This document shows, in pieces, positions 9,561 through 46,544 of a stretch of DNA of 60,404 nt. A program made the position numbers and the translations under genes. Within the stretch, counting starts at the first letter, position 1; the number at the start of each line of letters is the position of its first letter. The stretch is from positions 1 through 60,404 of the IMG/VR virus record IMGVR_UViG_3300032144_000011; one strand, 5' to 3'. A model generated the notes under the pieces. It was not told the DNA's origin. It worked only from the letters and a program-made list of their open reading frames with translations, and searched no databases. Source of the DNA: a virus.

Positions 9561-9775
9561 CCCGACCGACCGAGAAGAAGCTGCCGCCCATGCCCTACGG
9601 CTACGCCACCACGGCGCAGCCGGGCGACTACCACGGGAATGGCCACGTCTACATCGTCGACGCCAACGACCGCAAGATCGCCGCCCTGTGGGGCAAGCCG
9701 GACGAGAAGATGGCGCTCGCCGACCTGATCATCCGCGCCTCCGGCGGCGAGGGCGTGACGGACCCGCGCGCATGA
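9557..9775 (+). CDS. Hypothetical protein (72 aa)
   Basis: Tail of track ORF 9122..9775 from ATG 9557 (ATGA overlap). Confidence 0.55.
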   Translation: MTRPTEKKLPPMPYGYATTAQPGDYHGNGHVYIVDANDRKIAALWGKPDEKMALADLIIRASGGEGVTDPRA

Positions 9776-11544: not shown

Positions 11545-11546
11545 CC

Positions 11547-18584: not shown

Positions 18585-19802
18585 ATGCCCGCTGACCACA
18601 TCACGTCCCGCTTCGTCGACGGACTCGCGCCCCGGGACAAGGAATACTGCGCCTGGGACGGCGCGCTGCGCGGCTTCCATGTGCGGGTATCGCCATCCGG
18701 CCGCAAGGTCTACGCGCTGCGCTTCCGGGCGCCGTCGGGCGTGCAGCGGCGCAAGAACATCGGCGACGCCGCAGTCACCAACGCCACCAAGGCGCGCGAG
18801 CGGGCGCGGGCGATGCTGGACGCGGTCGCCGGCGGCAAGGACCCGGTCGCCGCCCAGCGCCAGGCGCGCGCCCAGGCGCAGGCGGCGGGGACCTACAAGG
18901 ACGTGGTCGAGGACTTCATCGTCAAGTGGAGCGAGCCGCGCCAGCGCACCGCCGCCGAGACCAAGCGCGTGCTGCTGAAATCCGGCGCTTCCTGGCTCAA
19001 GCGGCCCTTCGCCGACATCACCGAGGCCGACGGCTACGCCGTGCTCGACGCCATCCTGGCCGAGGGCAAGCACGCCAAGGCGCGGGTCACGCTGACCTAC
19101 ATGCGCCAGCTCTGGCGCTGGGCGCACAAGCGCGGGCTCTGCGCCGCGCCCGTCATGGACCGGGTCGAGGTCGAGATCGAGCGCCGGGTCAAGGTCCGCC
19201 GCTACGACGACAAAGAAGTCCGCGCCGCCTGGGCGGTCGCCGAGACGCTGCCGGCGATCGAGGGCGCCTACATCAAACTCTGCATCCTGCTGGGGCCGCG
19301 CAAGAACGAGCTGGCGCAGGCCGAGCGCGCCGAGCTCGACGACCCGGCCAAGCCGACGCTCTGGACCGTGCCCTTCGAGCGCACCAAGTCGAAGAAGAAG
19401 GCCAAGCGCGAGCGCGTCTACCTAGTGCCCCTGCCGCCGCTGGCACAGCGCATCCTGCGCGGCCTGCCGGCGCGCATCGACGCGCCCGAGCTGCTGTTCC
19501 CCGGCTACCGCGCGAAACAGCCGCTCGACCCCGGCACCTGGCTGGCCAATAAGATCCGCGCCGCCAGCGGCATCGAGGACTGGACCTACCACACCTGCCG
19601 CGACACCATCGCGTCGTGGCTGCAGGACCAGGGCTACGACGAATACAGCCGCGGGCTGGTGCTGAACCATTCCGGCCCCGGCACGGTCACCGCCGACTAC
19701 AGCCACGGCTACGCGCTCGAGCTGAAGCGCAAGATGCTCGAGGAATGGGCCGCGCATGTGGCGGCCGTGGTCCGGGCGAAGGGGGTCGAGGTGCTGCGGT
19801 GA
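18585..19802 (+). CDS. int: Tyrosine integrase (DUF4102-type N-terminal arm-binding domain)
   Basis: Track ORF of 405 aa. N-terminus FVDGLAPRDKEYCAWDGALRGFHVRVSPSGRKVYALRFR. C-terminus HTCRDTIASWL...LNHSG...ADYSHGY gives the catalytic R-H-R-Y context. Confidence 0.9.
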   Translation: MPADHITSRFVDGLAPRDKEYCAWDGALRGFHVRVSPSGRKVYALRFRAPSGVQRRKNIGDAAVTNATKARERARAMLDAVAGGKDPVAAQRQARAQAQAAGTYKDVVEDFIVKWSEPRQRTAAETKRVLLKSGASWLKRPFADITEADGYAVLDAILAEGKHAKARVTLTYMRQLWRWAHKRGLCAAPVMDRVEVEIERRVKVRRYDDKEVRAAWAVAETLPAIEGAYIKLCILLGPRKNELAQAERAELDDPAKPTLWTVPFERTKSKKKAKRERVYLVPLPPLAQRILRGLPARIDAPELLFPGYRAKQPLDPGTWLANKIRAASGIEDWTYHTCRDTIASWLQDQGYDEYSRGLVLNHSGPGTVTADYSHGYALELKRKMLEEWAAHVAAVVRAKGVEVLR

Positions 19803-22656: not shown

Positions 22657-23469
22657 CTAGCCTGCGATCTCCGTGATCGTCATCCGGCAGGCCGCGACGC
22701 CGCCAAACCGGCGATTCCCGCCGGCGCCGTTCCAGGTCAGCGTGCCGGCCGAATTGCTGCCGACGCGCACCTTGAACGTGGTGAGGGATGTCGTCCCGGC
22801 CGTCATGTAGTGCCGCATGACCGTGTGGAGCTGATCGTTCACGCCGGCCGCCTTGTCGGCGATGGCGTAGAGCGCATTGGCAATCGAGTCTTGGTGCAGC
22901 GCGAAGACCAGGGTCGCGTCGGCGTCGTAGGCCACCATGAGCGACGCCTCGATCAGCAGCTTGCTCGTGGCGCTGATCGGCGTGATCGCGCAGGTGATGA
23001 CCTCGTTGCCTTCGGTGTTCTGGGGGATCGTGTCGTCGACCGGCGTGGTCGTGCTGCCGGTGCCCTGCGTGATAACCTGGGCGTGCGCCACCTGCAGCAC
23101 CGCGCCCTGCGACAGCCCGGTGAGCTGCGATCCGTCGACCGGCGGCAGGGTCGGCGTCGCCGCCGTGTCGCCGAGGCTCTCGAGCCGGACGAGGTCGCCG
23201 ACCTCCTCGCCGACGGTCATCGCCGCGCCTTCCGAGTACGGCACCCACACGTTGCCGACCTTCGACGCCACCGTGACCCAGGCGTCGTTGGCGGCGTTGC
23301 GCTGCTTCAGTAGGTTGTTCGCGGTGTCGAACCACCACATATGCGCAAAGGTCGTGCCGGGCGCCGACGCGCCGGAATTCTGCGAGACCAGCGCGGCGAG
23401 CGCGTTGTTGAGGTCGGCGCGCACGGCGGCGCCGTTGCCGTTGTCCAGGGTGAAGTCGTGCTGGGCCAA
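22657..23469 (-). CDS. Tail fibre protein
   Basis: Track ORF of 270 aa. N-terminus MAQHDFTLDNGNGAAVRADLNNALAALVSQNSGASAPGTTFAHMWWFDT is a conserved fibre N-terminal motif in alphaproteobacterial phages and GTAs (recollection). Confidence 0.7.
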   Translation of the reverse strand: MAQHDFTLDNGNGAAVRADLNNALAALVSQNSGASAPGTTFAHMWWFDTANNLLKQRNAANDAWVTVASKVGNVWVPYSEGAAMTVGEEVGDLVRLESLGDTAATPTLPPVDGSQLTGLSQGAVLQVAHAQVITQGTGSTTTPVDDTIPQNTEGNEVITCAITPISATSKLLIEASLMVAYDADATLVFALHQDSIANALYAIADKAAGVNDQLHTVMRHYMTAGTTSLTTFKVRVGSNSAGTLTWNGAGGNRRFGGVAACRMTITEIAG

Positions 23470-30867: not shown

Positions 30868-31041
30868 ATGGATAGCCTGCCGTTCCTACATCCCGACGTT
30901 TTGTGGTTAATTGCATTCGGCTTTGCAATGGCAGGGATAATGGGCTTGCTCGGGCTGCTCCTGGCCCTTCCCGTGCTGATCGCTTCGCACGTCAAGAAGC
31001 TGTTCGCACCAGCGCCGAATTTCCGCATCAGGCAGCCCTGA
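30868..31041 (+). CDS. Possible opposite-strand small TM protein (57 aa)
   Basis: Track ORF 30844..31041, ATG at 30868. TM LWLIAFGFAMAGIMGLLGLLLALPVLIA. Lies in a 183-nt gap. No clear RBS. Confidence 0.3.
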   Translation: MDSLPFLHPDVLWLIAFGFAMAGIMGLLGLLLALPVLIASHVKKLFAPAPNFRIRQP

Positions 31042-33790
31042 CGGCAATCAGAAGGCCGCGCCTGTCACGCGAGACATCGGACCTGAATGCAATCGGGTCC
31101 AGCGTGGTCCCGTGAACCAGCCTGAACGTGCTTCCAAGGCCCGGACCGGCATTCGCCCCAGCGCCAGACGCTTGGTTAAAGGGCTTCTTGTTGGCGAAGA
31201 GAACCCATGGCCCGTTGTTAGTGCCCGTGCCGTTCAGTGGGTTGTCGTCGTCAATGGCGACGACAGCCGCGATGGCCATCCACAGCGAGCTTCCCCAGCT
31301 CGGCGTTATCGACCCGACATCGGGACTCGTGCTACCGCCGCCACCGGCCGTGCCTATTTCGATGCCCGCCAGATCGCCGTACCATGTACCAACGTCAATT
31401 TGGTAGACATGCGCCGCCGCTGTTGCGTTTGCGCTGGTGACGAAATCGACCGTCGCTCCGTCTTCCGTCCCGTCCGCGATTTTCTTGAAGACCGCGAGCG
31501 TGAAGGAGTCGGAGCCGTTCGTGACATTGACCGGCGTTTGCGCCGTCCAGCCCGAAGGCGTGGTAATCGTCCCTGCCGGAGCGCTGGCCAAGTAGTACAG
31601 GCCAAGGATGACGATCAGCGCATCGCCCGCCGCCACGGTCGCCGGCATTGTGACGGCGTGCGCCGTGCCGCTGCTTGCAATGCCCGTTCCGGTCGGCGGC
31701 AAATGGATGCCGAACGGCACATAAGCATCCACAGGCGCAATGGCGAAGCTGATGCCAATAGCCGCGCTGTTGGTGAAGGTGTAACCAAGGGTCTGCGCAC
31801 CAGCCGTCGCCGCATCGAGCGAACCGATGACGATGCGCTCGCCTGCCGTCGCGCCGGAGTCGTAGTTATCGGCTATCGCATGGCCGCTACCCGACGCCGC
31901 GACATCGGTAATTTCCTGCCCAATGACAAGCATGGAAACGACCAGTGACTTGTCGTAAACGGTGGTAATGTTAAGCGACAGCGGAGACGTATCGGACGGC
32001 GTTGCCGTCATGGTCGTGAACGGACCGGGCTGAGCATCCTTGACGGTGAAAATGGTTAGCGACCAGTGCGTGTTGGATGCTGTATCTCCCTGCACGGCAT
32101 TCGTGCCTGGGGCAGGAAGGTCCGCCTCGTCGATATAGCCAATTTCGAAAACTGCATCATTCGACGCGCCGTCAACAGCAAACGGAGCATTTCGTTTGAA
32201 GTGGACGCCGCCGAACGTCAAGGAGTCCAGTTGGGACTCGCTAAAGGGATTATAGCTCGTCTGCTCGATACCGATAATCGCGATGACCTTGCGGTTCGAG
32301 CCCGCGCCCGGATCGTAATCCGAGAGGTACGTCCGGTTCGCGCTGCTGTTCGTCGTGAATGTGGCGTTCGCGAAAGAGCCCGGCACGATGCTCGGCATGA
32401 CGATGCCGCTGATAGCCTCGCTATACACCCCGAACGAGTCCGCGCACGGCTGGATGAAGCCGACCGGCGCGTAGTCGACCGAGCCCGTCGCCGGGGCTTG
32501 GTTCTGGTGATAGGTCGCGTAGCCGCCGTTGAGGTAGACGAGGACCTGGTCGCTCGGGCCGCTGCCGTCGGCGCCGATGTTGCGCGGGGCAAGGCCGGCC
32601 GTCAGCGTGCTGTCGACGAACTTCTCGTAGATGTCGTCGTCGTTAAAGCCGAGTGAGACCGGGGCTTCCCAGTCCTCCGCCAGGCAGCCCATGAAGTGGC
32701 GGAGGTCGCCGGCGTCGCCGGAGCGCCCCAGGTAGCGCGTGCCGCCGAAGCCCATGTAGCCGCCAGCCGCGGTCGGCGGCGCGTTCACACCGTCGATCAG
32801 GCCCTTGAGGCGCAATGTCGCGCTGTCGCCGGAGATGTCGAGGCCGATCGGAACCTTGCCGTCCGCCACCAGGAACGTGTCGGTGCTGGTCACCTGCCCG
32901 ATCAGGTTGCCGGACTCGTCGTACCACTCGGCATGGACCTTGTTGTCCGCCCGGACGACGATGGACACTTCCGGCACCGGCGTCGCCGTGGTGATGTCGC
33001 CCCGCCAGTAGAGCGCCTGCTCGACCCCGTCCAGCGCCTTCTGCCGCCAGATGTGGATGGTGTGGCCGGAGCCCGGCGCCGGGGCCAGCGTGCCGAGCGG
33101 ATCCATGACGTAGTGCTGGCCCACGCCGTCCAGCTCGACCGCGTTGACCGTGCCGCCGGGGACGAGTTCCGCGCCGGCCGTCAGCGTCGCCTGTCCGGTG
33201 AGGGACGCCGCAATGCTGCGGGTCGCCAGCGCCGCCGCCGTCATCTCGGAATTGCCGGTCAGCGTGGCGGCGATGTATTGCGACAGGAACTCGCCCGGCG
33301 CCGCGGTGAGGCTCGAGCTGCCCAGCAGGCTCGCCGAAACCGACAGCAGACGGCCGGCATTCGCCGTCAGCACGGCCTCGCCGACCAGCGTCGCCGCGAT
33401 GTTGCGGACCACGCCGGCGAACAGGCCGGGCAGGATCTCCAGCTTGAGCGTCGCCTGCCAGCGCCGGTTGGCCGGGCTCTGGTCGCCGTGCAAGGTCGTC
33501 CACTTCGGCGGCTCGACGAAGCGGTACTGCACCAGCTCGTCGGTGCGGAAGTCGAGCCACTGGAAGCGCTGCGTCCCGTGCAGCAGGTCGGTCTCGTAGA
33601 AGGCGTCGAAGATCGCGAGCTGCGCGCCGGTCAGGATCAGCGGCGCCTCGACCATGCGGATCGCCGAGGTATAGCGGCGGCGCATCAGCGGCGGGCCGGT
33701 GTCCGGCTGCGAGCGGATGCGCGAGTCCTGCAGCTCGGTCATTACCGGGCCGGTCGGGTATTGCGGCAGATCGACGGGCCAGATGGCCAT
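31028..33790 (-). CDS. Distal-tail/gpM-like N-terminal module fused to a ~790-aa extension (LamG/lectin-like segments)
   Basis: Track ORF of 920 aa. Immediately follows the TMP (ATGA-type junction at 33790). The N-terminal ~130 aa resemble small minor tail proteins. The remainder is S/T/G/A-rich with LamG-like stretches. Confidence 0.75.
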   Translation of the reverse strand: MAIWPVDLPQYPTGPVMTELQDSRIRSQPDTGPPLMRRRYTSAIRMVEAPLILTGAQLAIFDAFYETDLLHGTQRFQWLDFRTDELVQYRFVEPPKWTTLHGDQSPANRRWQATLKLEILPGLFAGVVRNIAATLVGEAVLTANAGRLLSVSASLLGSSSLTAAPGEFLSQYIAATLTGNSEMTAAALATRSIAASLTGQATLTAGAELVPGGTVNAVELDGVGQHYVMDPLGTLAPAPGSGHTIHIWRQKALDGVEQALYWRGDITTATPVPEVSIVVRADNKVHAEWYDESGNLIGQVTSTDTFLVADGKVPIGLDISGDSATLRLKGLIDGVNAPPTAAGGYMGFGGTRYLGRSGDAGDLRHFMGCLAEDWEAPVSLGFNDDDIYEKFVDSTLTAGLAPRNIGADGSGPSDQVLVYLNGGYATYHQNQAPATGSVDYAPVGFIQPCADSFGVYSEAISGIVMPSIVPGSFANATFTTNSSANRTYLSDYDPGAGSNRKVIAIIGIEQTSYNPFSESQLDSLTFGGVHFKRNAPFAVDGASNDAVFEIGYIDEADLPAPGTNAVQGDTASNTHWSLTIFTVKDAQPGPFTTMTATPSDTSPLSLNITTVYDKSLVVSMLVIGQEITDVAASGSGHAIADNYDSGATAGERIVIGSLDAATAGAQTLGYTFTNSAAIGISFAIAPVDAYVPFGIHLPPTGTGIASSGTAHAVTMPATVAAGDALIVILGLYYLASAPAGTITTPSGWTAQTPVNVTNGSDSFTLAVFKKIADGTEDGATVDFVTSANATAAAHVYQIDVGTWYGDLAGIEIGTAGGGGSTSPDVGSITPSWGSSLWMAIAAVVAIDDDNPLNGTGTNNGPWVLFANKKPFNQASGAGANAGPGLGSTFRLVHGTTLDPIAFRSDVSRDRRGLLIAVRAA

Positions 33791-37033: not shown

Positions 37034-37444
37034 TCAGGGGGTGCGGTAGCGAACGGTGTAGCGAAGACGGGCAAGCCCGCGGGCCTGCTCGCCGGCGCCG
37101 TCGAAGCCTATGGACGTCTCGGCGAGGAAGCTGTTGAAGGCCCGCCCGCCCAGACGGATGTCGGCCGCCATCAGCGCCTCGATCGTCTCGGCGAGCGCGT
37201 CCAGCGCGTCGTCCGGCGCGCCGTCGGCGCCGGTGGCGTAGAGGTCGATAGCAAGCTGCAGGTCGCGCATCATCCGCGGCGGCGTGAGCGACTCCTGCTC
37301 GGAGATCTCGTTCAGCGTGTAGACGCAGATCGCCGGCAGCTCGGTCCGCTGGATCGGGTAGACCCGCGACGGCACGACCGGCAGGTCGGTGGTCGACAGC
37401 AGCGCCACGACATGGTCGCGGATCTCGGCGCGCGGATGGGTCAC
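37034..37444 (-). CDS. Tail terminator/completion protein (gpU position, DUF3168-like)
   Basis: Track ORF of 136 aa, GTG start overlapping the upstream TGA. Position directly upstream of the tube gene. Confidence 0.65.
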   Translation of the reverse strand: MTHPRAEIRDHVVALLSTTDLPVVPSRVYPIQRTELPAICVYTLNEISEQESLTPPRMMRDLQLAIDLYATGADGAPDDALDALAETIEALMAADIRLGGRAFNSFLAETSIGFDGAGEQARGLARLRYTVRYRTP

Positions 37445-37602
37445 GGCACCTGCTCCGCCAGCGCCCGCATGCGCGAGGCGTAGGAACGGGCCAATGCGTA
37501 GGCCTGTTCCTGGTACTCCGCGTCCGTCAGCTCTCCGGCTTGGTGCCGTTCCAGCAGCACGGCTTCGGCGTCGCGCATCTCTGCGGCGAGGGTGTCGATC
37601 AT
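37441..37602 (-). CDS. Possible small protein (53 aa)
   Basis: Not in track. Read from sequence: MIDTLAAEMRDAEAVLLERHQAGELTDAEYQEQAYALARSYASRMRALAEQVP. Its stop overlaps GTG 37444. Confidence 0.4.
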   Translation of the reverse strand: MIDTLAAEMRDAEAVLLERHQAGELTDAEYQEQAYALARSYASRMRALAEQVP

Positions 37603-37637
37603 GGGTGGCCTTTCGGAAAATCCGCTATATTGGATCG

Positions 37638-37949
37638 ATGCAGCTAAGCCTGGTCACTCACATCGCCCTTGCCGCCACGCTCATTGTCGGCGGGGCGCTG
37701 ATGTTCATCGGCATGCTCGGCTACTTCCGTCGCCCGCACTGGCGTTGGGTTGTCATCGGCGGCCTTGGCGTGCTCTTATTGGCTGGGCTTTATGGTTATA
37801 TTTTTTGGAGGACATTAGGTGTACATCCTCGCGCTCCGAGCCTCGATCCTGCTGCTCAAGGCGATCCAACTGCCGTTCGTCGGCCTCTATATTCTGCTCG
37901 CGCTGCTCGCAGGCTTCTTCGTGATGATCGAGGAATGGCAGGAGGATAA
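37638..37949 (+). CDS. Opposite-strand small TM protein A (2 TM in the first ~60 aa; 3' third overlaps ORF B)
   Basis: Frame of track ORF 37389..37949 from ATG 37638 (MQLSLVTHIALAATLIVGGALMFIGMLGYFRRPHWRWVVIGGLGVLLLAGLYGYIFW). TATATT lies 7 nt upstream. The tail after residue ~60 looks non-coding-like. Confidence 0.4.
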   Translation: MQLSLVTHIALAATLIVGGALMFIGMLGYFRRPHWRWVVIGGLGVLLLAGLYGYIFWRTLGVHPRAPSLDPAAQGDPTAVRRPLYSARAARRLLRDDRGMAGG

Positions 37950-38001
37950 GCTATCCCAAGCCATGGCCGATAAGGGGCTGCCATACGAAGTCAGGGTCTA
38001 G
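37819..38001 (+). CDS. Opposite-strand small TM protein B (60 aa)
   Basis: Track ORF. GGAGGA lies 6 nt upstream of GTG 37819. TM LPFVGLYILLALLAGFFVMI. Its stop shares a CTAG with the convergent minus-gene stop. Confidence 0.55.
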   Translation: MYILALRASILLLKAIQLPFVGLYILLALLAGFFVMIEEWQEDKLSQAMADKGLPYEVRV

Positions 38002-40904
38002 GCAGCGCTCATGCGCAGGCGGATGCGCTTCGGCTGAAAGTCGAAATGCGCCACGCCTTCCTTGCCTTGCAGATACAAGCCGATGCAGGCGAGAATGCCG
38101 TGCGTCTGCTGGTTCGTGTACTCCGTCGAAGGAATATCGAACGAGCCGTTTCCCAGCCATTGCCGCATCGGCATGAAGCCGGGGTCAGGCTCGACCAGCT
38201 TGGCCGGCGCATCGTTCGTCGTCACCGCACCCTTCGGCCACGGCCAGTGCGCCCAGGTTACGCCCCCGTAAAGGAAGCTGAGCACCCACGACCGCCAGTG
38301 ATGCCATCCGTAGGCGCAGACGCCCTCCGGCGGGCGGCGGCCCATGGCCCTGGAGTCTTCGTGCAACAGGTTCTTCGGATTCTTGTAGCCGAGCCCATTC
38401 ATCAGGCAGTAGTTCGGAGGGTTATTGCCAAGCGCCAGCGCCGCACCAGCTTGGAGCACCTCGGCATAAAGGCTCGTGCCGGTGATCACATGAGCCCAGA
38501 CGAGGACCGTTGCTTCGGCCAGCGTAGGGCATGACCCAGTGCCGAACCCGCCATAGGCTTGGGTTGAAATGTGGCGCGTATTGATGAGCGCGATATCCGA
38601 ATTGCCCTTGCGCGATGCAATAAAGCCGTTGGCGGTGTTAATGATCGCGCTGCGCATTTGCGTTTGATAGGTCGCATTCACCCCGGCGTGGCCGACATTT
38701 GCATAGTCCCATTGCGTGGAGCCCGGCGTATGCCCGCCTCCGTTCCCGGCCAGCCCCCCATCCGAGCCGTCCCACCAGTCCTCGACCATGTCCTTGTAGG
38801 TCGAGTTGTCGATCAGCCGATAGAGCGAGGCCGCCGCAAAAACACGAGCGCCGCCGGATCGATTGCCCGGATTAACAAGATAGGACGATTGCGTGGCTTT
38901 GTAGGTTTCCCAGCTCGTGGCCGAGAACTCCCCCGCGCCATCGGCCAGCGTGATTTCTTCCGCCCACAAGGTGTCGAGATCGGCATAGACGGATTCGGCA
39001 TAATCGAACGCCGCGACCGCGCTGGTCTGATACGTTGCGGACAGCGTCAAGAAGCCTTCATCGGCCAGAACGCGCGCCAGATGCGCCGCAGCCGCAGCAT
39101 ACTGATAGGCCGTCAACGGGTCTTTATGCGAATAGGCGAAGGTGACTTGCCGTTCCTTCCAGGACGGCTCATGCGCCGCCGGAGTGTTGGCGGACTCGAT
39201 GCCGCCGATGACGGAGCCATCCTCGATTTGCGAACGCCGCCAGAAGTCGATGATGAACATCGCAATTTGAACGGCATCGGGAAGCGCGTCCGTCCCGGCA
39301 TAGGTGCCGTCCGTAACCAGCGTGGACATTTTCGGGACATTGAAATCGCTGCCGTTCGCAGCCGAACCGACGATCTCGTGAACACTGAGGAAGAACCGCG
39401 CAAGGTTAAGGTGCTGCGTGCGGCGGTCATGATCCCCCGCGTCATGCGTACCACCCCAATAGGGAACCTCGGTCGCTGTAATCCAGGGAGACGCCGCGCC
39501 GTTGTTGAACGTGACGAACCCGCCGCCCTCTGTGCTCCACGACAGTGGTAATTTGCTTTGCAGCAAGGTCAGCGTCCCGCCCTCGCTGACGGGCCGATGG
39601 CACATCGGGCGTTCGTAGCCGAACCGATCGTCCAGCGCGACGCCGCAATAATGCGCCACGACCCCGCGCATCCCATAATCCGCAAGCCTCGCCCACACCG
39701 CCGTGTCGATGCGGAACAGAGGCGTCACGCCAAATCCGGGCAGCCAGATGCGGTAGTCGCCCGGCGGCAGGGTGATTGCCCCGATATCGACATTGTAGAC
39801 ATCGGTTCCGACCGTATTGCGATAGAATGTGTCATGAACAAAGCCGCCACTCGTATATGTGCCAAAACTCGTCGTGTTAACACCGAACGAGAATGTCGTC
39901 TCGTCGATGACGGTAATGGCGTCTGAAGTAACCTGACGCCGGAAGCTGTTGGCGCTGTCCATGCCGAGAATATTCGTCAGGTATTTCTTCTCGTCCGTCG
40001 AAAACCCATGCGGGCCGTCTGTCGTAACAACTCCAGGGTTGGCCTTTGTAATTGCGGTGATTGCTATTTTGTTGTTGAGGCTTGCGACCCTGTTCTGGTC
40101 GTCATTGAAGAGATCGCTATAAGTTTCTAGCGTATCCCCCGCTATTCTGAATTCCGCCGTGATCTCGTGCTGAACGGCGCCGTTCTTGTCGATGAGATAG
40201 AACGCCCCCGTCCACGCATTGTAGATCGTCGGATCGAACATCCCTTCCCGGCCATCGCCATTGTCGTAACCGGGAAGCCATTGGTGATACGTCGCGTGCT
40301 TCCGCTCGTCGTCAAGGCCGTAGCCGTTTTGATTGATATGGATGCCGGGGCAGATCGTGGTCTTTTCGTTAAGCGTGAACTCGTGATCCGCGGGGACGGC
40401 GTATTTCCCGCTGCCGATCAGGTCGGGCCATGGAATCGTATAGGTGCCGTCCGCGAGAACGCCGCTCAGATGCAGATAGACGTAGTGCTCGACACGGTAA
40501 ATCTGCGTTTCTTCCGAGCCGTTCCGGGTAAAGCCCTGATCCTCGAACAGCATCCGGTAATAGACATTGGTGACCGTCAGCCCGCCAATGGTGCCGTAAC
40601 CGGCCACATTCAGGATTGCTTCCCGGTCGAGATAATCCGGCGTCGCGGAATCCATCGTGCGGAACGTCAGCTTGTCGGGGGCGACCAGGAACCCGTTCAC
40701 GCCATCGATCACGGTCCATGTGTTGTAGGCCGCCGTGGACATATCGGCGAGCGTGCCGGTCGTCGCCCCCTGCGCCCACTCCTGAGACGACGGATAGGCT
40801 GTCGCGAGATTTACCAGCCCGCCATGCGTGATCTCGCCATCGAGAATGATTGCCAAAAGAATGTCTGGGGCAACGCGCTGGATCTCGGAGACGGTGACGG
40901 TCAT
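37998..40904 (-). CDS. Large virion-module protein with GH9-like (alpha/alpha)6 endoglucanase domain
   Basis: Track ORF of 968 aa. YWGGTHDAGDHDRR resembles the GH9 GGW.DAGD.K catalytic-Asp motif. A C-terminal ...STEYTNQQT... stretch is in the position of the GH9 catalytic-Glu motif. The N-terminal ~400 aa are beta-rich. Confidence 0.75.
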   Translation of the reverse strand: MTVTVSEIQRVAPDILLAIILDGEITHGGLVNLATAYPSSQEWAQGATTGTLADMSTAAYNTWTVIDGVNGFLVAPDKLTFRTMDSATPDYLDREAILNVAGYGTIGGLTVTNVYYRMLFEDQGFTRNGSEETQIYRVEHYVYLHLSGVLADGTYTIPWPDLIGSGKYAVPADHEFTLNEKTTICPGIHINQNGYGLDDERKHATYHQWLPGYDNGDGREGMFDPTIYNAWTGAFYLIDKNGAVQHEITAEFRIAGDTLETYSDLFNDDQNRVASLNNKIAITAITKANPGVVTTDGPHGFSTDEKKYLTNILGMDSANSFRRQVTSDAITVIDETTFSFGVNTTSFGTYTSGGFVHDTFYRNTVGTDVYNVDIGAITLPPGDYRIWLPGFGVTPLFRIDTAVWARLADYGMRGVVAHYCGVALDDRFGYERPMCHRPVSEGGTLTLLQSKLPLSWSTEGGGFVTFNNGAASPWITATEVPYWGGTHDAGDHDRRTQHLNLARFFLSVHEIVGSAANGSDFNVPKMSTLVTDGTYAGTDALPDAVQIAMFIIDFWRRSQIEDGSVIGGIESANTPAAHEPSWKERQVTFAYSHKDPLTAYQYAAAAAHLARVLADEGFLTLSATYQTSAVAAFDYAESVYADLDTLWAEEITLADGAGEFSATSWETYKATQSSYLVNPGNRSGGARVFAAASLYRLIDNSTYKDMVEDWWDGSDGGLAGNGGGHTPGSTQWDYANVGHAGVNATYQTQMRSAIINTANGFIASRKGNSDIALINTRHISTQAYGGFGTGSCPTLAEATVLVWAHVITGTSLYAEVLQAGAALALGNNPPNYCLMNGLGYKNPKNLLHEDSRAMGRRPPEGVCAYGWHHWRSWVLSFLYGGVTWAHWPWPKGAVTTNDAPAKLVEPDPGFMPMRQWLGNGSFDIPSTEYTNQQTHGILACIGLYLQGKEGVAHFDFQPKRIRLRMSAA

Positions 40905-42577
40905 CAGTCGCTCGGGCTATTCGGCGCGGCCGAAAGAGTCCCGGTCAGCGTCCCGCCCGAAACCGAGCCGGCATTAGTATGCCAAGATGCTGCTGCCTTG
41001 TTGTGGCAGAATTTAACTTGCGCCCCGGTCGGCCCGGAACCATCCGTCAATAGATCGACAGGCTTCCCGGCCGCATCGATGAATTTGCGCCGGTTCGCCT
41101 CGACTGTGATGTCCATTCTGGCGGTCGGGTCAAACCAAAGTTCGGCCACATAGGCAACCAATTTATTCGTGGCGCTGTTATCGCAGCCCACAAAAAGCGA
41201 TGCCATCGTGTAGTCAATATTTCCGCTTGCCAAGGTGTTAGTCGTCAAATTGGCTGAGTAATCCGCATCATTCACGTACACCGATATTCCGGCGGCCGTG
41301 TTCCACGATAGCTGTAAATTAAACCATGTATCGACGGGGCAACTCGACACGGTCGCGGATATCTTCGTCACGTTCGAAGCGTCTCGCGCGAAAATCCCAA
41401 CGACACCAGAAGTGTTGTTTACATAAATAACGAAGCGATTGTTGGTCGTGGTCGAGATATCAAATATGCCGTATATGCCGGATGATGGCCATGTCGGCAA
41501 GCGCAGCCAGATCGAAAAAGTGCCTACCGCCGCGTCAGCAAGAGAGGCGCTCACATCCCCGTAAGCGATATGCTGGCTACCGGTAAAATTAACGGCGTTC
41601 GCTACATACCCCGCCGCCGCCACCTCCAGCGTGAACGTCGCCAGGTCGTCGGTGCTGCCCTCGTCGTCCGTCACCCTTACCGACAGGCTGGCGAAGCTGC
41701 CGCTTTCCGTGGGCGTGCCCGAGACGACGCCGGTCCCGGAGTCGATGCTGATGCCCGCAGGCCAAGTGCCTTGCAGCGAGAAAACGTAAGGCGTAACGCC
41801 GCCTGTAGCGGACGCGGTGAACCCGGCGTAGGCCGTGTCTTCCGTGGCGGTCAGCACAGGCGTGCCGGAGATGGCGAGAGCGGCGTTGACAGTGAAGGCG
41901 TAGCTTTGCAGCTCGGTGAAGGTGCCGTCGTCGCGCCAGACGTAGCCCCTGACCGTGTGCGCGCCCAAGGCGAGCGCGCTGAGCGTCACCGGGCAGCTTG
42001 CCAGCGTGGCGGTCGTCAGGTCGGCAGTGCCGAGCACCGTGCCATCGGCGGCGATCACCGCGGCATGGTCGCCGGCCAGCACCGTGGCGCCCGACAGGTC
42101 GAGCACAACGTCCGGCGTGGTGTCCGAGGTCTGGTTGCCGACGCCGACCGACAGCGCGACCGGGCCCAGGCTCTGGTTCATCGTGTAGGGCACGGCGTTC
42201 GAGTGGGGGCTCTCGCCGCCGGCGTTGACGTGGGTCATGGTGATCATCCACGCGCCCGCCGGGATCGCATCGAAGGTGCCAGCCGGGACCGCGCCGCCCG
42301 ACAGCATTTCCGAGGTAAGCACGAAACTGTCGTGCAGCGTCGCCCCGGCCGTGTCGCCCGCGTCGAGATAGACGCGGACGGTCTCGCCCGCCTGGGCGGC
42401 GTCGTCGAAATCCGCCGCCATCTGCGGGAACGGGTCGTTGCTGAGATGATCGCCCGAGGTGCTGCCAAGGTCCGAGGCCGGCAGCAGCGTGAGGATCGGC
42501 GCGAGCGGGGCCGACGGCGGCTCGGCCGCCGGCGACGCCACGAAGCCGAGCCGCGTGCGATCGCGCGGGAAAATCAT
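40904..42577 (-). CDS. Ig-like repeat plus LamG (concanavalin-type lectin) domain protein
   Basis: Track ORF of 557 aa. A...GGVTPYVFSL.GTWPAGISIDSGTGVVSGTPTESGSF is the putative-Ig (dystroglycan/cadherin-like) motif. The C-terminal FSIWLRL...VYVND... stretch is LamG-like. Confidence 0.75.
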   Translation of the reverse strand: MIFPRDRTRLGFVASPAAEPPSAPLAPILTLLPASDLGSTSGDHLSNDPFPQMAADFDDAAQAGETVRVYLDAGDTAGATLHDSFVLTSEMLSGGAVPAGTFDAIPAGAWMITMTHVNAGGESPHSNAVPYTMNQSLGPVALSVGVGNQTSDTTPDVVLDLSGATVLAGDHAAVIAADGTVLGTADLTTATLASCPVTLSALALGAHTVRGYVWRDDGTFTELQSYAFTVNAALAISGTPVLTATEDTAYAGFTASATGGVTPYVFSLQGTWPAGISIDSGTGVVSGTPTESGSFASLSVRVTDDEGSTDDLATFTLEVAAAGYVANAVNFTGSQHIAYGDVSASLADAAVGTFSIWLRLPTWPSSGIYGIFDISTTTNNRFVIYVNNTSGVVGIFARDASNVTKISATVSSCPVDTWFNLQLSWNTAAGISVYVNDADYSANLTTNTLASGNIDYTMASLFVGCDNSATNKLVAYVAELWFDPTARMDITVEANRRKFIDAAGKPVDLLTDGSGPTGAQVKFCHNKAAASWHTNAGSVSGGTLTGTLSAAPNSPSD

Positions 42578-43068
42578 CAGCCGGGATATCCCGTCAGGTC
42601 GACGCGGAAGGTCTCCTCGCTCGCCGGGGTGAAGACGCTGCGCGTCTCCAGCAGGCCGTAGATCGTCGCGGCCTCGAAGGGGATGTCGCAGTTGGCCCAG
42701 CCGACGGCGTCGTCGGAGCCGGCGGCCGTCACATCGACGTCGACGAAGCCGATGCAGTTCGCCAGCGGCTTGACGAAGGCGGCGTTATCCCCGGCGCCGG
42801 GCACCAGCGATGCCTTGAACAGCCAGACCCGGATGGTCGGCGTGGCGACCGCCTGGTTGCTCTTGCGCACCTTGACGCGACGGATCGTGCCGGCGCCCCA
42901 GTAGGCCGCCCACTGCAGCAGGGTCACCGAGCCGGCCGTGGCATTGTCGGCGATGGCATCGCCGATGTCGTAGGGCGTCGTGTTGCCGAGCCGGTTGAAG
43001 CTGTTGACGACCGGAGTGAGCTCGCGCGTCAGCGGGCCGACCACGGGACTGGATCCGTCAGCGGACAT
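42577..43068 (-). CDS. Hypothetical structural protein (163 aa)
   Basis: Track ORF. ATGA-type coupling with the downstream gene. Confidence 0.65.
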   Translation of the reverse strand: MSADGSSPVVGPLTRELTPVVNSFNRLGNTTPYDIGDAIADNATAGSVTLLQWAAYWGAGTIRRVKVRKSNQAVATPTIRVWLFKASLVPGAGDNAAFVKPLANCIGFVDVDVTAAGSDDAVGWANCDIPFEAATIYGLLETRSVFTPASEETFRVDLTGYPG

Positions 43069-43080
43069 GGGCGTTTCCTT

Positions 43081-43515
43081 TTAAAGCAGGCCGACGACGA
43101 GCGATGCGGCCGGGAAGCGGATGACGTCGCCGTCGCCGGCCGTCTTCGGCGTGGTCAGCGGGCCATGGAACAGCGGATTGCCGCCGCCCACGGTCGAGCC
43201 GCTGTGCGTGATGGCGTCGTGGATCTTCATGGCGACCGCCTCCGACCATGCGCCGCCGTCGGCCGCCTCGAAGGCCCATTCCTGGTCGTTGTCGGTGAAG
43301 CCGCCCGCCGCGACCGCGAAGGTGCGGCCCGTGGCGTGCTCGATCTCCAGCCGGGCATAGGCGAAGGTGGCGGCCAGCTCGGTGCCGCCGGTGCTGTCGT
43401 TGGTCGGCGTAGAGTAGAGCGCCAGGCCCAGCGTCGTCGGCGGGGTGTAGTCCGCGTCCTTCAGCACATGGTCGAGCAGCTCGGACGCGAGGAAATCGGC
43501 GAGATTGTTGGCCAT
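43081..43515 (-). CDS. Hypothetical structural protein (144 aa)
   Basis: Track ORF. The N-terminal MANNLADFLASELLDHVLKDADYTPPTTLGLALYS pattern is a recurrent uncharacterised phage family (recollection). Confidence 0.65.
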   Translation of the reverse strand: MANNLADFLASELLDHVLKDADYTPPTTLGLALYSTPTNDSTGGTELAATFAYARLEIEHATGRTFAVAAGGFTDNDQEWAFEAADGGAWSEAVAMKIHDAITHSGSTVGGGNPLFHGPLTTPKTAGDGDVIRFPAASLVVGLL

Positions 43516-43857
43516 TTAACGGACCCTCCGAAGCGGCTTGTGAGCGTTGGGGCGGCGGCCGTGCATCATGCCGTCCTCGACCGGACACCAGGTGCCGCAC
43601 TTGACGCACTCGATGCGCCGGATGACGCAGGCGCCCTTGTGCTGGCCGAGCAGCGGGGAGACGATGACCTTGAAGCCGACGAAATTGCAGTTCGGGCAGC
43701 TTGCCGGCAGGCGTTCCAGGTGCGGCAGGAACAGCGACGTCGCCAGCTTGAGCGTGGGCGGCGCCTTCTCGACGGCGGCGGCGGGGTCGGGCGCCTGGAC
43801 GGCAGCCACCAGCGTCCCGGCCGGGCGCAGCCTGGCGCCGGTGTCATGGATGGTCAT
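43516..43857 (-). CDS. Zinc-ribbon protein (113 aa)
   Basis: Track ORF. CPNC...C...CVKC. ATGA overlap with the upstream gene. Confidence 0.5.
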   Translation of the reverse strand: MTIHDTGARLRPAGTLVAAVQAPDPAAAVEKAPPTLKLATSLFLPHLERLPASCPNCNFVGFKVIVSPLLGQHKGACVIRRIECVKCGTWCPVEDGMMHGRRPNAHKPLRRVR

Positions 43858-44183
43858 GGCGCCTGCCGCAGCCGCAGGGCGAGCACGACGCCACCCTCGG
43901 AATCGGGCCGCACGTCGGTAACGGCAAACTCCGTGCCGCGGATGTCGACCCGGTCGCCCGGGGCGACGGCGCCCACGGCGTCGCGGCGGCAGGCCACGCT
44001 GATCTGGTAGTCCGAGATCGCCACGTTGCCGTCGCCGATCAGCTCGTAGTAGCGCGCGTCGAACACGCCCTCGACCTCGACCGCCGCGTCGCCCGCGCGC
44101 GTCAGCGTGAAGCTCTCGCCGAAGACCGAATTGATGGCGTCGGTCAGGCCGTCGAAGAGCGCTAGACCCGTAGGCTGCGGCAT
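43854..44183 (-). CDS. Head-tail connector / head completion protein
   Basis: Track ORF 43854..44258 trimmed to ATG 44181-44183. FDGLTDAINSVFGESFTL...VEGVFDARYYEL...GDRVDIRGTEFAVTDVRPDSEGGVVLAL matches the head-tail joining pattern. Confidence 0.7.
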   Translation of the reverse strand: MPQPTGLALFDGLTDAINSVFGESFTLTRAGDAAVEVEGVFDARYYELIGDGNVAISDYQISVACRRDAVGAVAPGDRVDIRGTEFAVTDVRPDSEGGVVLALRLRQAP

Positions 44184-45181
44184 TCGAACACTGTCTCCTT
44201 GGCGTCCGCGTGGGACTCCTGCACGATCGGGAAGACCACGCCGAGCTGCCGCCGCCACCAGTGGGCGCTGCGGCGCACGACGATGTCGGCGCCCGCCGTG
44301 CGGACGCGCACCCGGATCTCGGCCTTGCGGGCCAGGTCGGTGATCGCGTGCGCGACCTCCATGGGGTTGGCGCGCAACTCGAGCCCGGTCACTTCCTCGA
44401 GCTTCGGGTCCGGGGCGGGCCGCTCGACAATGACCGGCGCCTCTTCCGCCTCAGCCGCCGGCGCGGGAGCGGCGGCTTCCGCCGGCGCTTCCGGCTCATG
44501 GTCCGGGGCGGCCTCGGGCTCGTCTACCCGGTGATCCTGCTCGAAAACGGCTCTGCGTGGCGTCCTGGCCAAGACTTCCTCCAACGTGGTTTTCGGGAAA
44601 CAGTTCAGCGCGGAGCCCGGATAGCAGTTGAGCACGGTCACCCCGTGCTGCTGCAGCGGCGCCGCCATGCGCGCGATCGCCGGCATGAAGCGCTGCTCGT
44701 AGGCTTTGTCCTTGACGGCGCGGCGCGGCCGGCCGTCCCAGTTCTCGCCCTTCATGTCGAAGCCGAGCAGGACGATCGGGTCGCAGCCGAACAGGAAGGC
44801 GAGGTTGAGGCTGTTGCCGCCGGAGCAGACGCCGCCCAGCTTCGTCGGGTCGGTCGACAGCCCCATCTTCTGATCGCTGATCAGCACCTTGACGTCGTGG
44901 CCCTGGGCCCGGCTCACCGGGCCGCGCGTGACCTTGAACGGCCCCTTGTGCAGATGCAGCCGCGGGCCGTTCGCCGGGTGCTTGCTGTCGCCGTCGCACC
45001 AGAACTTGTCCGCCCAGTAGAGCACGTCCGCCCAGGGCGCCATCGTCAGCCCGGCTTCCTTGATGGCGATGACCCGCCCGCGGCCGCGCAGGACCGCCGC
45101 GTCGAAGCCCCGGAGCGAGGATCCGCCGCCGATGATGAAACAGGGCTGCCCGGCCCAGAGGCGCGGCACGGACCAGGTCAT
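44162..45181 (-). CDS. DUF115/Maf-like (MptE-like) putative glycosyltransferase with Pro/Ala/Glu linker and C-terminal domain
   Basis: Track ORF of 339 aa. PCFIIGGGSSLRGFD...VIAIKEAG...ADVLYWADKFW and GGNSLNLAFLFGCDPIVLLGFDM follow the DUF115 pattern. Confidence 0.7.
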   Translation of the reverse strand: MTWSVPRLWAGQPCFIIGGGSSLRGFDAAVLRGRGRVIAIKEAGLTMAPWADVLYWADKFWCDGDSKHPANGPRLHLHKGPFKVTRGPVSRAQGHDVKVLISDQKMGLSTDPTKLGGVCSGGNSLNLAFLFGCDPIVLLGFDMKGENWDGRPRRAVKDKAYEQRFMPAIARMAAPLQQHGVTVLNCYPGSALNCFPKTTLEEVLARTPRRAVFEQDHRVDEPEAAPDHEPEAPAEAAAPAPAAEAEEAPVIVERPAPDPKLEEVTGLELRANPMEVAHAITDLARKAEIRVRVRTAGADIVVRRSAHWWRRQLGVVFPIVQESHADAKETVFECRSLRV

Positions 45182-45960
45182 TCAAGGATGCGCCACATCG
45201 TGCCGTCGATCATCTCGCGCTCGTCGAACTGGCAGTAGGCCAGCGCGGCCAGCCACGGCGCGCGGTCGGGATAGACGGGCGTCTCGATCAGCGACAGATC
45301 GGTCAGCCCCACATGCCGCGCAGCGGAAACGGGATCGACGAACACCGGCACGCCCATCACCGCGGCCTCGACGGCGGCGATCGAGCCGTGCGTCACCAGC
45401 GCGTGCGCGCCGCGCAGCGCCTGGTCCAGCGGGACCGGGTCGTATTTGCGCCGCACGACGACCGCGCGATCCGTCAAGTCCTTGAGGATCTCCAGCGTCG
45501 CGTCGAGCCAACCCTCGATGCCGTGAAACCGCGCGTAGGTATCGGTCGGCGCGGCGACGACGATATGGCTGCCCGCCGCCCGCCAGGGGCGGACCGGCAG
45601 CATCAGCTTTTGCAGCCGGTCGGGCGGCCGGGGCCGCAGCGTCTCCATCTGCCAGGCCGACCGGTGCCAACGCCAGTAGCCGTGCCCGGGGTCCTGGCCG
45701 AGCCCCGCCGCCGCCATCCGCCCGCGCCGGAGATAGCCGCGGTCGATGTAGAGGAAGGGGCGCCCCGCCGCCGCCCACGCCGCGAAGAGCGGGCGCATCT
45801 CGGGGAAGCATTCCGACGCCGGGATCAGGTCCGTCTGCGCCATCGCTTCGACCCGGCGGACGATGCGCCCCATGCGCGCGCCCACCTGGTCGAACAGGCG
45901 GCGCTTCTGCCCCTTCCGCGCCTGCGGGACGTAAAGCGCGACCGACTGCGGATCGATCAT
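45178..45960 (-). CDS. Putative glycosyltransferase (GT-B C-terminal-like)
   Basis: Track ORF 45178..46161 trimmed to ATG 45958-45960. ATGA overlaps at both ends. ...ALVTHGSIAAVEAAVMGVPVFV... resembles GT-B/capsule-synthesis enzymes. Weak assignment. Confidence 0.55.
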   Translation of the reverse strand: MIDPQSVALYVPQARKGQKRRLFDQVGARMGRIVRRVEAMAQTDLIPASECFPEMRPLFAAWAAAGRPFLYIDRGYLRRGRMAAAGLGQDPGHGYWRWHRSAWQMETLRPRPPDRLQKLMLPVRPWRAAGSHIVVAAPTDTYARFHGIEGWLDATLEILKDLTDRAVVVRRKYDPVPLDQALRGAHALVTHGSIAAVEAAVMGVPVFVDPVSAARHVGLTDLSLIETPVYPDRAPWLAALAYCQFDEREMIDGTMWRILE

Positions 45961-46544
45961 CCGCCTACGCGCCGCTGCCAGACCGTGCGGTGCCCCTTGT
46001 GGCCCGAGGTCGGGCCGATGTCCGGCAGCGCCGTGAAGTGGCCGCCCAGCGTGTGCCGGCCGAGGGTTCCGGCGCGGATGTCGAGGATCAGGCGGCCGCC
46101 CGGACGGAGGATGCGGCGCGCCAGCGGCAGATAGGTCTCCACCGGGTAGTGCCAGCCCCACGACAGCAGGCTGACGATGTTGTCGACCGGCGGGATGTCG
46201 GCCGCGCCGATCGGCCAGGGCTTGTAGCGCGCCACGCCGTTGAGGCGCATCATCTCCGCCGTCAGGTGCATGTCGTTGAAGGCGTCCATGTCCGGCCCGA
46301 AGCCGGTGCGCCGGTCGGCCCAGCCGGTGCCGTCCATCAGGTGCAGCATGCCGCCGCAGTGATGCGCGATCAGCGCGGACATGCCGCCGAGGCCGCAGCC
46401 GATGTCGAGCGCGTCGCCCGGCACGAGCCGGTCGCGCAGCAGGGCGAACTCGCCCTCGATCGCCGCGACGTAGCCGTCGGCGCTGGCGACCTCGCTACGC
46501 TGCTGGCGCAGGTAGCGGTCGATGCCGTCAGGCAGGACGAGCAA
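45957..46544 (-). CDS. Class I SAM-dependent methyltransferase
   Basis: Track ORF 45957..46802 trimmed to TTG 46542-46544 behind GGAGGG. Motif I ALDIGCGLGGMS, then LRPGGRLILD. Confidence 0.7.
   Translation of the reverse strand: MLVLPDGIDRYLRQQRSEVASADGYVAAIEGEFALLRDRLVPGDALDIGCGLGGMSALIAHHCGGMLHLMDGTGWADRRTGFGPDMDAFNDMHLTAEMMRLNGVARYKPWPIGAADIPPVDNIVSLLSWGWHYPVETYLPLARRILRPGGRLILDIRAGTLGRHTLGGHFTALPDIGPTSGHKGHRTVWQRRVGG

Follow-up and report, generated by a model that had tools for sequence, protein, structure and literature searches.

Why should a phage of lambda-like gene order carry, between its head-closure and tail-terminator genes, an enzyme of a cellulase family? The question arises from the IMG/VR virus record IMGVR_UViG_3300032144_000011, which I analysed as one whole contig (60,404 bp, 69% GC; hereafter the window). 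Four consecutive genes, encoding proteins of 144, 163, 557 and 968 amino acids (aa), lie at that place, and a sequence-only reading of this DNA had taken them for two unknown proteins, an Ig/LamG protein and a GH9-like (glycoside hydrolase family 9) endoglucanase, which together might form neck or side appendages that bind and cut a beta-glucan such as cellulose fibrils or exopolysaccharide (EPS). I propose, with a probability of about 0.6, that the block is an accessory-appendage module with a conserved virion-proximal base and an exchangeable tip that would bind and cut polysaccharide, the cutting part being a GH9 enzyme aimed at EPS. The phage is a temperate lambda-like siphovirus, and its host probably a Hyphomicrobiales-type alphaproteobacterium.

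The late operon is lambda-like in its order: genes for a gpA-type terminase, a lambda-type portal, an S49 protease, gpD and gpE are followed by two glycosyltransferase-like genes, a FII-type head-closure gene, a 113-aa open reading frame (ORF) and the four-gene block; after ~400 bp, which hold small membrane-protein ORFs on the opposite strand and a 53-aa ORF, come the tail terminator, the tail tube and the tape measure, then a 920-aa and an 865-aa protein, and at the end DUF1833, NlpC/P60 and gpJ (Table 1). The four genes lie on the minus strand, and the sequence-only reading had placed the block correctly, between flanks which Pfam and PHROG matches identify as head-closure and tail-terminator genes. 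The 163/557 and 557/968 junctions both read TGATG, an overlap of one base, and the 144/163 junction is a 12-nt spacer with AAGGAAA, a ribosome-binding-like motif; further upstream, the 113-aa ORF meets the 144-aa gene at TAAATG, while its start codon runs into the FII-type stop (ATGA). This translational coupling within the run from head closure to terminator supports a structural appendage. A scan of 36-45 kb for promoters and terminators detected nothing exceeding shuffled expectation.

Table 1. Features of the window, with amino acid identity of the window's product to that of the sibling contig L147 where available (aa, amino acids; ORF, open reading frame).
Feature	Position	Strand	Identity to L147	Basis or remark
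144-aa gene (Gp80 family)	43081-43515	-	95%	ORF
163-aa gene	42577-43068	-	96%	ORF
557-aa gene (Ig/lectin protein)	40904-42577	-	85% (residues 1-349)	ORF
conserved Ig-like region, residues 1-322	41612-42577	-	85-92%	Big_13-like repeats + He_PIG
He_PIG, residues 239-319	41621-41863	-		PF05345
exchangeable LamG/ConA-like lectin-type domain (probable), residues 323-557	40904-41611	-	unrelated	hhalign, L151 homologue
last ~30 residues of the 557-aa protein	40904-40990	-		WHTNAGS..GG.T..G.L..A..SPSD
968-aa gene (GH9)	37998-40904	-	28%	ORF
beta-rich N-terminal domain, residues 1-280	40065-40904	-		family-wide conservation of P13, D85, H140, K202, W209
E1_FCCH-type beta-barrel, residues 289-357	39834-40040	-		PF16190 E 1e-7, 32.4 bits; PDB 2lzj E 0.0035
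Ig-like (CelD_N-type) domain + GH9 (alpha/alpha)6 catalytic domain, residues 360-950	38055-39827	-		PF00759, Foldseek
DAGD of the HDAGD motif	39432-39443	-		contains D488 and D491
E928	38121-38123	-		putative catalytic acid
C-terminal extension, residues 951-968 + stop	37998-38054	-		ends KRIRLRMSAA; proposed docking strand
FII-type head closure	43854-44258	-	79%	PF05354 Phage_attach E 2.4e-15; phrog_82 'head closure Hc1' E 1.4e-16
113-aa Cys-rich (Zn-ribbon-like) protein	43516-43857	-	88%	translation; between FII and Gp80 gene
small membrane-protein ORFs, apparent moron slot	~37638-37949 and 37819-38001	+		ORFs; GC 0.57
53-aa ORF	37441-37602	-	90%	downstream flank, with the tail terminator
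tail terminator	37034-37444	-	96%	phrog_4204 E 1e-22
tape measure			89%	
low-GC island	37600-41700			GC 0.50-0.64 vs ~0.69; lectin domain, GH9 gene, moron
second low-GC island	28.2-32.6 kb			865-aa protein and C-terminal half of 920-aa protein
865-aa and 920-aa proteins	28247-30844 and 31028-33790	-		homologues in L015, 1669-3099 and 9238-11448
270-aa protein after gpJ	22657-23469	-		weak Pgp3 C-terminal (TNF-like trimer) match, E 8e-5
two glycosyltransferase-like genes	44162-45181 and 45178-46161	-	84% (first gene)	phrog_4603 'sialyltransferase' E 1e-24 (one); weak DUF6716 match (other)
tyrosine integrase	18585-19802	+		with Arm-DNA-binding domain
DUF5131 protein	12795-13901	+		ORF
SNF2-type helicase	14627-16363	+		ORF
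HerA/FtsK-like ATPase	9460-11544	+		ORF
contig ends	1-184 and 60136-60404			12-nt tandem repeat, ~15 and ~22 copies

The 968-aa protein is, on profile matches and on its predicted fold, a genuine (alpha/alpha)6 enzyme of the GH9 family, and its activity is predicted. PF00759 matches residues 478-852 well above the Pfam cut-off (E 1.2e-13, 51.7 bits vs 27.7), and a profile of 25 family members finds GH9 chains of the PDB at E 7e-36 to 1e-18, among them the crystal structures of J30 (7e-36), the BoGH9A xyloglucanase (1e-27) and CelD (9e-27); a PDB search with the single sequence matched the FCCH domain only. The AlphaFold (AF2) model, with a predicted local distance difference test (pLDDT) of 83.3 and a predicted template modelling score of 0.87, folds as a GH9 (alpha/alpha)6 barrel that is helical over residues ~497-948, and in a Foldseek search against the PDB ranks 1-45 are all GH9 enzymes, including a Paenibacillus GH9 xanthanase, with target-normalised template modelling scores of 0.69-0.79 for enzymes in which an Ig-like domain precedes the barrel (Ig-GH9). 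The HDAGD motif that had first drawn attention is present at residues 487-491, within WGGTHDAGDHD, which aligns to GGWxDAGDY of PDB 5u2o; its two aspartates, D488 and D491, are D/D in 148 of 152 relatives. E928, in the sequence STEYT, is the putative catalytic acid, invariant in the family alignment and Glu in 144 of the 152, and all three positions together are retained as D/D/E in 142. The G-x-N...TG-x-G part of the second GH9 signature, GxNPxxxS[FY]xxGxG...P.HHR, aligns, with a C-terminal sub-profile, to AaCel9A (E 5e-6) and BoGH9A (E 5e-4). The N-terminal domain is modelled as beta-strands with pLDDT mostly >80 and has no signal peptide; the FCCH domain behind it is of a type that recurs in phage tail proteins, and the C-terminal extension has low pLDDT in the monomer model.

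As for the two small proteins that the sequence-only reading had left as unknown, this holds for one of them only. The 144-aa protein matches PF23140, 'Podophage GP4 fiber I protein gp80', over nearly its whole length (residues 5-141 of 144 on profile positions 2-127 of 128; E 1.9e-25, 90.1 bits vs a cut-off of 27 in Pfam), and residues 10-140 match the solved GP4 chain PDB 8jou_a at E 3.8e-5. These matches place it clearly in the Gp80 fibre-protein family, and I propose that it is the virion-proximal fibre or anchor component. Homologues of it occur in 118 phage records, with fibre and carbohydrate-enzyme genes nearby in the four contexts examined: in Bcep22 genes for a virion protein and a pectin-lyase-like protein come next, and after them the tail fibres, in a Manatee Spring siphovirus it lies among fibre and carbohydrate-esterase genes, in Roseobacter phage CRP-4 it precedes a putative fibre protein, and in mycobacteriophage CRB2 it lies among minor tail genes. 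The 163-aa protein gave no Pfam, PHROG or PDB match, and no similarity to the Gp80-neighbour genes of Bcep22, CRP-4, CRB2 and MW202476. The genes that follow its homologues also encode carbohydrate-active proteins: in L150 a 736-aa FCCH protein, in L151 a free-standing LamG-like protein and then a BNR/Asp-box protein of 732 aa, and in Caulobacter phage Lullwater a 'lipase'. I propose that it serves as adaptor between the base and the distal proteins.

The 557-aa protein had been read as an Ig/LamG protein. Its Ig part is confirmed by He_PIG (PF05345; E 9.8e-8, 32.8 bits vs a cut-off of 24), over which the AF2 model reaches a pLDDT of 95-98; confident modelling is confined to residues ~160-320. 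The LamG part was not matched directly by Pfam in residues 323-557, even at E<=10, and draws its support from profile-profile and transitive matches. With hhalign, these residues align to six PF13385-annotated domains over ~155 columns (probability 84-87%, E 4e-6 to 8e-6), and the free-standing homologue in L151 (31% identical) matches PF13385 Laminin_G_3 at E 3.7e-5 and 24.4 bits, which is below the cut-off of 27.6. The AF2 model of this part is all-beta with low confidence, and I regard residues 323-557 as probably a LamG/ConA-like lectin domain. Its last ~30 residues are conserved in the L151 LamG-like protein (1421-2188) despite the low overall identity and a different downstream enzyme (BNR/Asp-box), and could be an interface for whichever enzyme comes next. 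A related arrangement is seen in the siphovirus-like contig L148, where a 551-aa He_PIG + Laminin_G_3 protein (10001-11656; He_PIG domain 76% identical to that of the window) is the last tail-module gene before the lysozyme, by which placement Ig/LamG blocks also serve at the classical tail-fibre position.

The division of the block into base and tip follows from the comparison with the sibling contig L147, which has an identical gene order (FII, the 113-aa ORF, Gp80, the 163-aa protein, the Ig protein, GH9, a reverse-strand gene, a 54-aa ORF, terminator, tube and tape measure). While the flanking and base genes are 75-96% identical between the two, and the base itself 85-96%, the lectin domains are unrelated and the GH9 proteins share 28% identity. 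The block is thus made of a conserved base and an exchangeable bind-and-cut tip, and such a pattern, in which the proximal part is kept and the distal part replaced, is characteristic of receptor-binding appendages. Base composition shows the same division. The GC content at third codon positions is 0.90-0.92 for the Gp80 and 163-aa genes, the Ig region (0.90) and the terminator, 0.62 for the lectin domain and 0.74 for GH9, and the low-GC island of the window has its match in L147. The succession of Ig-protein and GH9 genes recurs in L022 (Ig region 53%, GH9 ~31% identical to the window) and in L015. The site after the GH9 stop looks like a moron slot, because L147 carries there a reverse-strand gene for a GT25 glycosyltransferase and the window two small membrane ORFs, of which the one at 37819-38001 has a GGAGGA ribosome-binding site; the slot possibly serves lysogenic conversion of the cell surface.

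In the proposed mechanism, the Gp80-family protein, the 163-aa protein and the N-terminal Ig-like region of the 557-aa protein would make up the base, and the LamG-like domain of the latter together with the GH9 glycanase the tip. The base would attach to the particle, most simply at the neck; I infer this from the conserved gene position and the precedent of phage GP4. The lectin and Ig domains would hold EPS or capsule of the host, while the GH9 enzyme, lacking a signal peptide, would dock onto the appendage through its extra basic C-terminal tail and would hydrolyse beta-1,4-glucosidic bonds of the polysaccharide backbone with inversion, D488/D491 acting as base and E928 as acid. Cutting the EPS would let the phage tunnel to its receptor, and recombination at the Ig/lectin junction and 3' of the GH9 gene, beside the moron slot, would swap the tip and thereby direct the phage to different host polysaccharides.

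Where on the particle such an appendage would sit can be argued differently. The four proteins may be virion-borne as fibres of the head, or as side fibres of the baseplate or tail tip, with their position in the neck cluster being incidental; I consider this unlikely, though it is the alternative that fares best. In L015 the Ig/GH9 pair is contiguous with tail-fibre genes and is flanked by homologues of the 865-aa and 920-aa proteins (47% and 25% identity), which in the window follow the tape measure and coincide, the latter with its C-terminal half, with the second low-GC island. This arrangement and that island keep the tail-tip option alive, and it seems that phages of unrelated types exchange several host-recognition modules jointly. 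The position of the He_PIG + LamG protein before the lysis genes in L148, and that of the Gp80 relative among minor tail genes in CRB2, point the same way. However, the position of the block between head-closure and terminator genes is identical in two related phages, the GP4 fibres I and II hang from a 15-mer adapter ring around the head-to-tail adapter, that is, at the neck (PMC11445570), and neck-borne collars that bind or degrade carbohydrates are known in lactococcal siphophages (PMC6669499).

An exhaustive HMMER search retrieved 1,245 relatives of the 968-aa protein, 172 of them at E<1e-30, and a second homologue search with the family alignment yielded no further members. Dozens of relatives of ~950 aa align end to end at 30-36% identity, and the whole architecture (beta N-domain, FCCH, Ig-like domain, GH9 barrel) therefore belongs to one family. 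The full-length architecture is found in the Hyphomicrobiales Aureimonas sp. ME7, Methylobacterium sp. BTF04 and Ectorhizobium quercum, and also in metagenome-assembled genomes (MAGs), including those of Proteobacteria. When GH9 loci were scanned with a hand-made DNA pattern for WG[GA]xxDAGDWD, with one genome per species, at least 120 loci were obtained, all encoding relatives; this variant (L027-L146) comprises Ig-GH9 proteins of Planctomycetota, Verrucomicrobiota, Acidimicrobiia, Cyanobacteria and Alphaproteobacteria, and LH.D in place of HHR is a trait of this group.

Two types can be told apart among the relatives. The cellular homologues carry a Sec or Tat leader ahead of the N-domain, whereas 50 leaderless members, the window protein and 49 others, start directly at the mature N-domain; after the putative catalytic Glu most leader-bearing members have 19-35 residues, the cellular homologues 19-31, and most leaderless ones 35-44. 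A basic alternating tail is frequent in the leaderless type (KRIRLRMSAA in the window, ARIRLRMNSAAA in L147 and L022, RPRIRIR in L011, KRIRRQVVVTT in P0069), so that a tail like that of the window is present in GH9 proteins of as little as 28-31% identity (L147, L022) and absent from the cellular homologues. Relatives also occur at 9 IMG/VR loci, and those contexts of leaderless members that were examined look phage-like, L022 and L024 included. In L002-4 the leaderless GH9 gene is the last late gene and adjoins the integrase; in L011 a 1492-aa protein, encoded directly after tail-fibre-like genes and before the terminase, has the GH9 region as its C-terminal part; and in L015 the GH9 gene lies among tail-fibre genes on a contig with a T7-type portal, which is podovirus-like.

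These observations bear on the possibility that the GH9 protein, perhaps with the 557-aa protein, is no part of the virion at all, being either a soluble late enzyme, set free at lysis, that loosens EPS so that progeny can spread, or an auxiliary metabolic gene (AMG) or moron inserted in the late operon. The architecture is indeed identical to that of free secreted cellular enzymes and contains no known anchor domain, the cassette has a low GC content and clear morons behind it, and a viral GH9 from the rumen, active on carboxymethylcellulose (CMC), was interpreted as a cellulase AMG (PMC10465536). I nevertheless regard this as improbable, and the plain AMG or moron reading is down-weighted by the TGATG coupling to upstream structural-type genes, by the missing signal peptide in 50 members, most of which have the distinctive C-terminal extension, and by the fusion of GH9 to tail-fibre proteins, or its adjacency to them, elsewhere (the fusion in L011; similarly in L015, L002 and L022).

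The nature of the substrate is best approached through the neighbours of the cellular homologues. In four of the five genome and MAG contexts examined, and additionally in the Logan contig of P0002, EPS-synthesis genes adjoin the full-length homologue (L001, Aureimonas L041, Methylobacterium L100, L123 and L038): Wzy-type polymerases (Wzy_C), GT2/GT4 glycosyltransferases, a Wzx-type flippase (Polysacc_synt), Poly_export, or an ABC + HlyD pair. Judged by this gene content, the loci are Wzx/Wzy exopolysaccharide loci, and a cellulose-synthase gene was not seen beside any of the full-length cellular homologues examined. GH9 xanthanases are known to cleave the beta-1,4-glucan backbone of the bacterial EPS xanthan (PMC10881899), and together with the EPS-locus relatives they suggest that the phage has captured an EPS glycanase and directs it against a host heteropolysaccharide. 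I therefore propose that the enzyme derives from, or has common ancestry with, the secreted glycanases of bacterial Wzx/Wzy EPS loci. Of the two beta-glucan targets named by the sequence-only reading, EPS is thus favoured and cellulose disfavoured. That the same appendage and enzyme are directed at bacterial cellulose, such as bcs-type fibrils in a biofilm matrix, is improbable. In its favour, cellulose or CMC is the substrate of most GH9 enzymes characterised so far, which are endo-beta-1,4-glucanases, the rumen viral one is active on CMC (PMC10465536), and the best structural matches include CelD, CbhA and AaCel9A. Against it, the closest full-length cellular relatives belong to heteropolysaccharide loci with several glycosyltransferases, the swap seen in L147 suits variable heteropolysaccharides better than an invariant cellulose, and the family deviates from the canonical HHR signature.

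Several points weigh against an EPS-cutting appendage at the neck. Its presence in the virion, the neck attachment, the docking role of the tail and the actual substrate are deduced, the last of these from the gene neighbourhoods of relatives that are only ~30% identical. No domain for particle binding or trimerisation is recognised in the GH9 protein, whose architecture is shared with secreted cellular enzymes. The Pfam, full-profile and C-terminal-profile alignments to PDB GH9s stop short of E928, the putative counterpart of the Glu in the NE[VI][AT] motif of characterised GH9s, and because the HMMER alignments never reach this residue, its role as acid rests on its invariance and position. 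The HHR triplet reads LHE followed by D850 (LHED) in the window protein and varies across the family, by which activity or specificity may differ from those of characterised GH9 enzymes. PHROG 240 labels the Gp80 relatives 'head protein', and the L015 pair, beside homologues of proteins that follow the tape measure in the window, speaks for the tail rather than the neck.

On bacteria that form capsules or slime, the host range of a phage is decided by its depolymerases, and these are sought after as anti-biofilm enzymes; to my knowledge, almost all that have been characterised are trimeric beta-helix tailspikes. The remark that GH9 is not a usual phage depolymerase type was justified: the barrel matched none of 50,697 phage records, among which the FCCH domain alone found a match (Pantoea phage PdC23), and a structure search of BFVD with the 968-aa model matched that domain only and left the barrel unmatched. 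In the open-access literature searched for GH9 with phage or EPS, the rumen enzyme is the sole viral GH9 found, and no description of a GH9-like EPS-locus family turned up, so that the family appears uncharacterised; 'GH9' in an Erwinia jumbo-phage paper is the name of a strain, and a gut-phage review covers GH9x families only. The GH9 type is not unique to the phage of the window, and with at least 50 leaderless relatives and 9 IMG/VR loci it points to a recurrent, undescribed class of phage-borne GH9, of which the likely origin is the hosts' own EPS-processing glycanases, an uncharacterised GH9 subfamily in Hyphomicrobiales Wzx/Wzy loci. The two siblings, ~90% identical around a swapped lectin/GH9 cassette, amount to a natural experiment which offers testable recombination boundaries and a candidate docking motif, and siphophages too, as the block suggests, may bear fibres of the Gp80 type, for which the only solved structure comes from a podophage. 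The concept of a virion-borne depolymerase is ordinary, and carbohydrate collars at the neck have a precedent (PMC6669499); new are the fold, the likely EPS-locus origin, the placing of the enzyme on a polypeptide of its own that has a candidate docking tail, and the cassette swap between siblings.

More tentatively, and with rather more doubt than belief, I suggest that long-tailed lambda-like phages of alphaproteobacteria may carry a GP4-type collar, based on Gp80, onto which whole cellular enzymes are plugged non-covalently, an 'adaptor plus captured enzyme' design. The enzyme would here be a leaderless EPS-locus GH9 with a basic docking strand and elsewhere a BNR/Asp-box or FCCH-domain protein, a combination that is to be taken with the same doubt. 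If true, this would be a general depolymerase-appendage design distinct from the self-anchoring trimeric tailspike, and the enzymes that process Wzy-dependent exopolysaccharides would stand out as a GH9 subfamily not characterised before.

The remainder of the window agrees with a temperate phage, as shown by the tyrosine integrase. Both contig ends lie in the 12-nt tandem repeat and overlap exactly over 35 bp. The genome probably closes to a circle, in which the repeat would encode a Pro/Asp/Ala-rich protein spanning the junction, and overlap and integrase together make it likely that the temperate phage genome is complete. By capsid protein, Synechococcus phage Yong-M2-251 and Aurantimonas phage AmM-1 are the nearest isolates, and neither has a comparable block after the capsid gene. 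The plus-strand arm encodes a DUF5131 protein, a helicase and an ATPase (Table 1), and no tRNA genes were found in the whole window. The 113-aa ORF, in the same position in L147, has a CxxC...CxxC pattern with a weak Pfam match to Zn_ribbon_NrdR and no family was assigned to it; a zinc ribbon is unusual among neck genes. The two glycosyltransferase-like genes between the major capsid and head-closure genes might serve virion glycosylation, and the 270-aa protein encoded after gpJ may be the distal tail fibre or receptor-binding protein proper.

Among known systems, the nearest to the enzyme itself are the 'theme B' Ig-GH9 enzymes of CAZy family GH9 (CelD and CbhA of C. thermocellum, AaCel9A of A. 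acidocaldarius, BoGH9A of B. ovatus and the Paenibacillus xanthanase; PDB 1clc, 1ut9, 3ez8, 6dht and 6fhn). The window protein resembles these in its Ig-like domain ahead of an (alpha/alpha)6 barrel, the DAGD pair, the GANxxGxxxxTGxG signature and, putatively, a catalytic Glu near the barrel end, but it is ~12-18% identical to them and has an extra N-terminal region of ~360 residues (beta-domain and FCCH barrel), LH[E/x]D in place of HHR, no secretion signal, a basic C-terminal tail and a place in a phage late operon. EPS loci may hold glycanases which process the cell's own polymer, such as ExoK and ExsH of S. meliloti, PlyA and PlyB of R. leguminosarum, BcsZ and PslG, members of GH16, GH8, GH39 and others; the cellular homologues of the window protein are comparable in their genomic setting, being signal-peptide hydrolases beside Wzy, glycosyltransferase and export genes and in one case beside an ABC + HlyD pair, but they are GH9-like.

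With Bcep22 (gp60-gp62) and the fibre I of Ralstonia phage GP4 (PF23140, PDB 8JOU) the block shares the Gp80 homologue, and with Bcep22 the same gene logic, an enzyme being encoded downstream. However, these are podophages and the phage of the window is long-tailed and lambda-like, its enzyme is a GH9 and not a beta-helix, and no homologue of the 93-aa adapter of GP4 was recognised in the window. The neck passage structure (NPS) of the lactococcal 936 and P335 phages is non-essential and joins a near-identical N-terminus to exchangeable C-terminal modules that are carbohydrate-binding or resemble glycan hydrolases (PMC6669499). The neck gene position and the constant N-terminal part with exchangeable carbohydrate modules are similar here, a resemblance that is functional and positional only, as the NPS is a single trimeric protein of phages of Gram-positive bacteria, with a BppU-like N-domain and a coiled coil, whereas here there are four proteins and the host is probably Gram-negative. 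Neither the BppU-like sandwich nor the coiled coil was matched in the four proteins by Pfam, PHROG or PDB searches, and the two AF2 models (968 aa and 557 aa) contain no long helices outside the GH9 barrel.

Classical tailspikes are, as a rule, trimers of beta-helix or beta-propeller fold that bring an N-terminal anchor of their own. The GH9 enzyme of the window differs from them in its (alpha/alpha)6 fold and in being a polypeptide by itself, on which no anchor was detected. Its architecture is that of the cellular enzymes, unchanged, and even the N-terminal domain is common to the secreted cellular homologues. What it would share with the virion depolymerases, such as gp9 of P22, the K1F endosialidase and the Klebsiella capsule depolymerases, if the proposed role is correct, is the breakdown of a host surface polysaccharide by an enzyme on the virion, and the combination of a conserved proximal part with a distal specificity that is exchanged horizontally.

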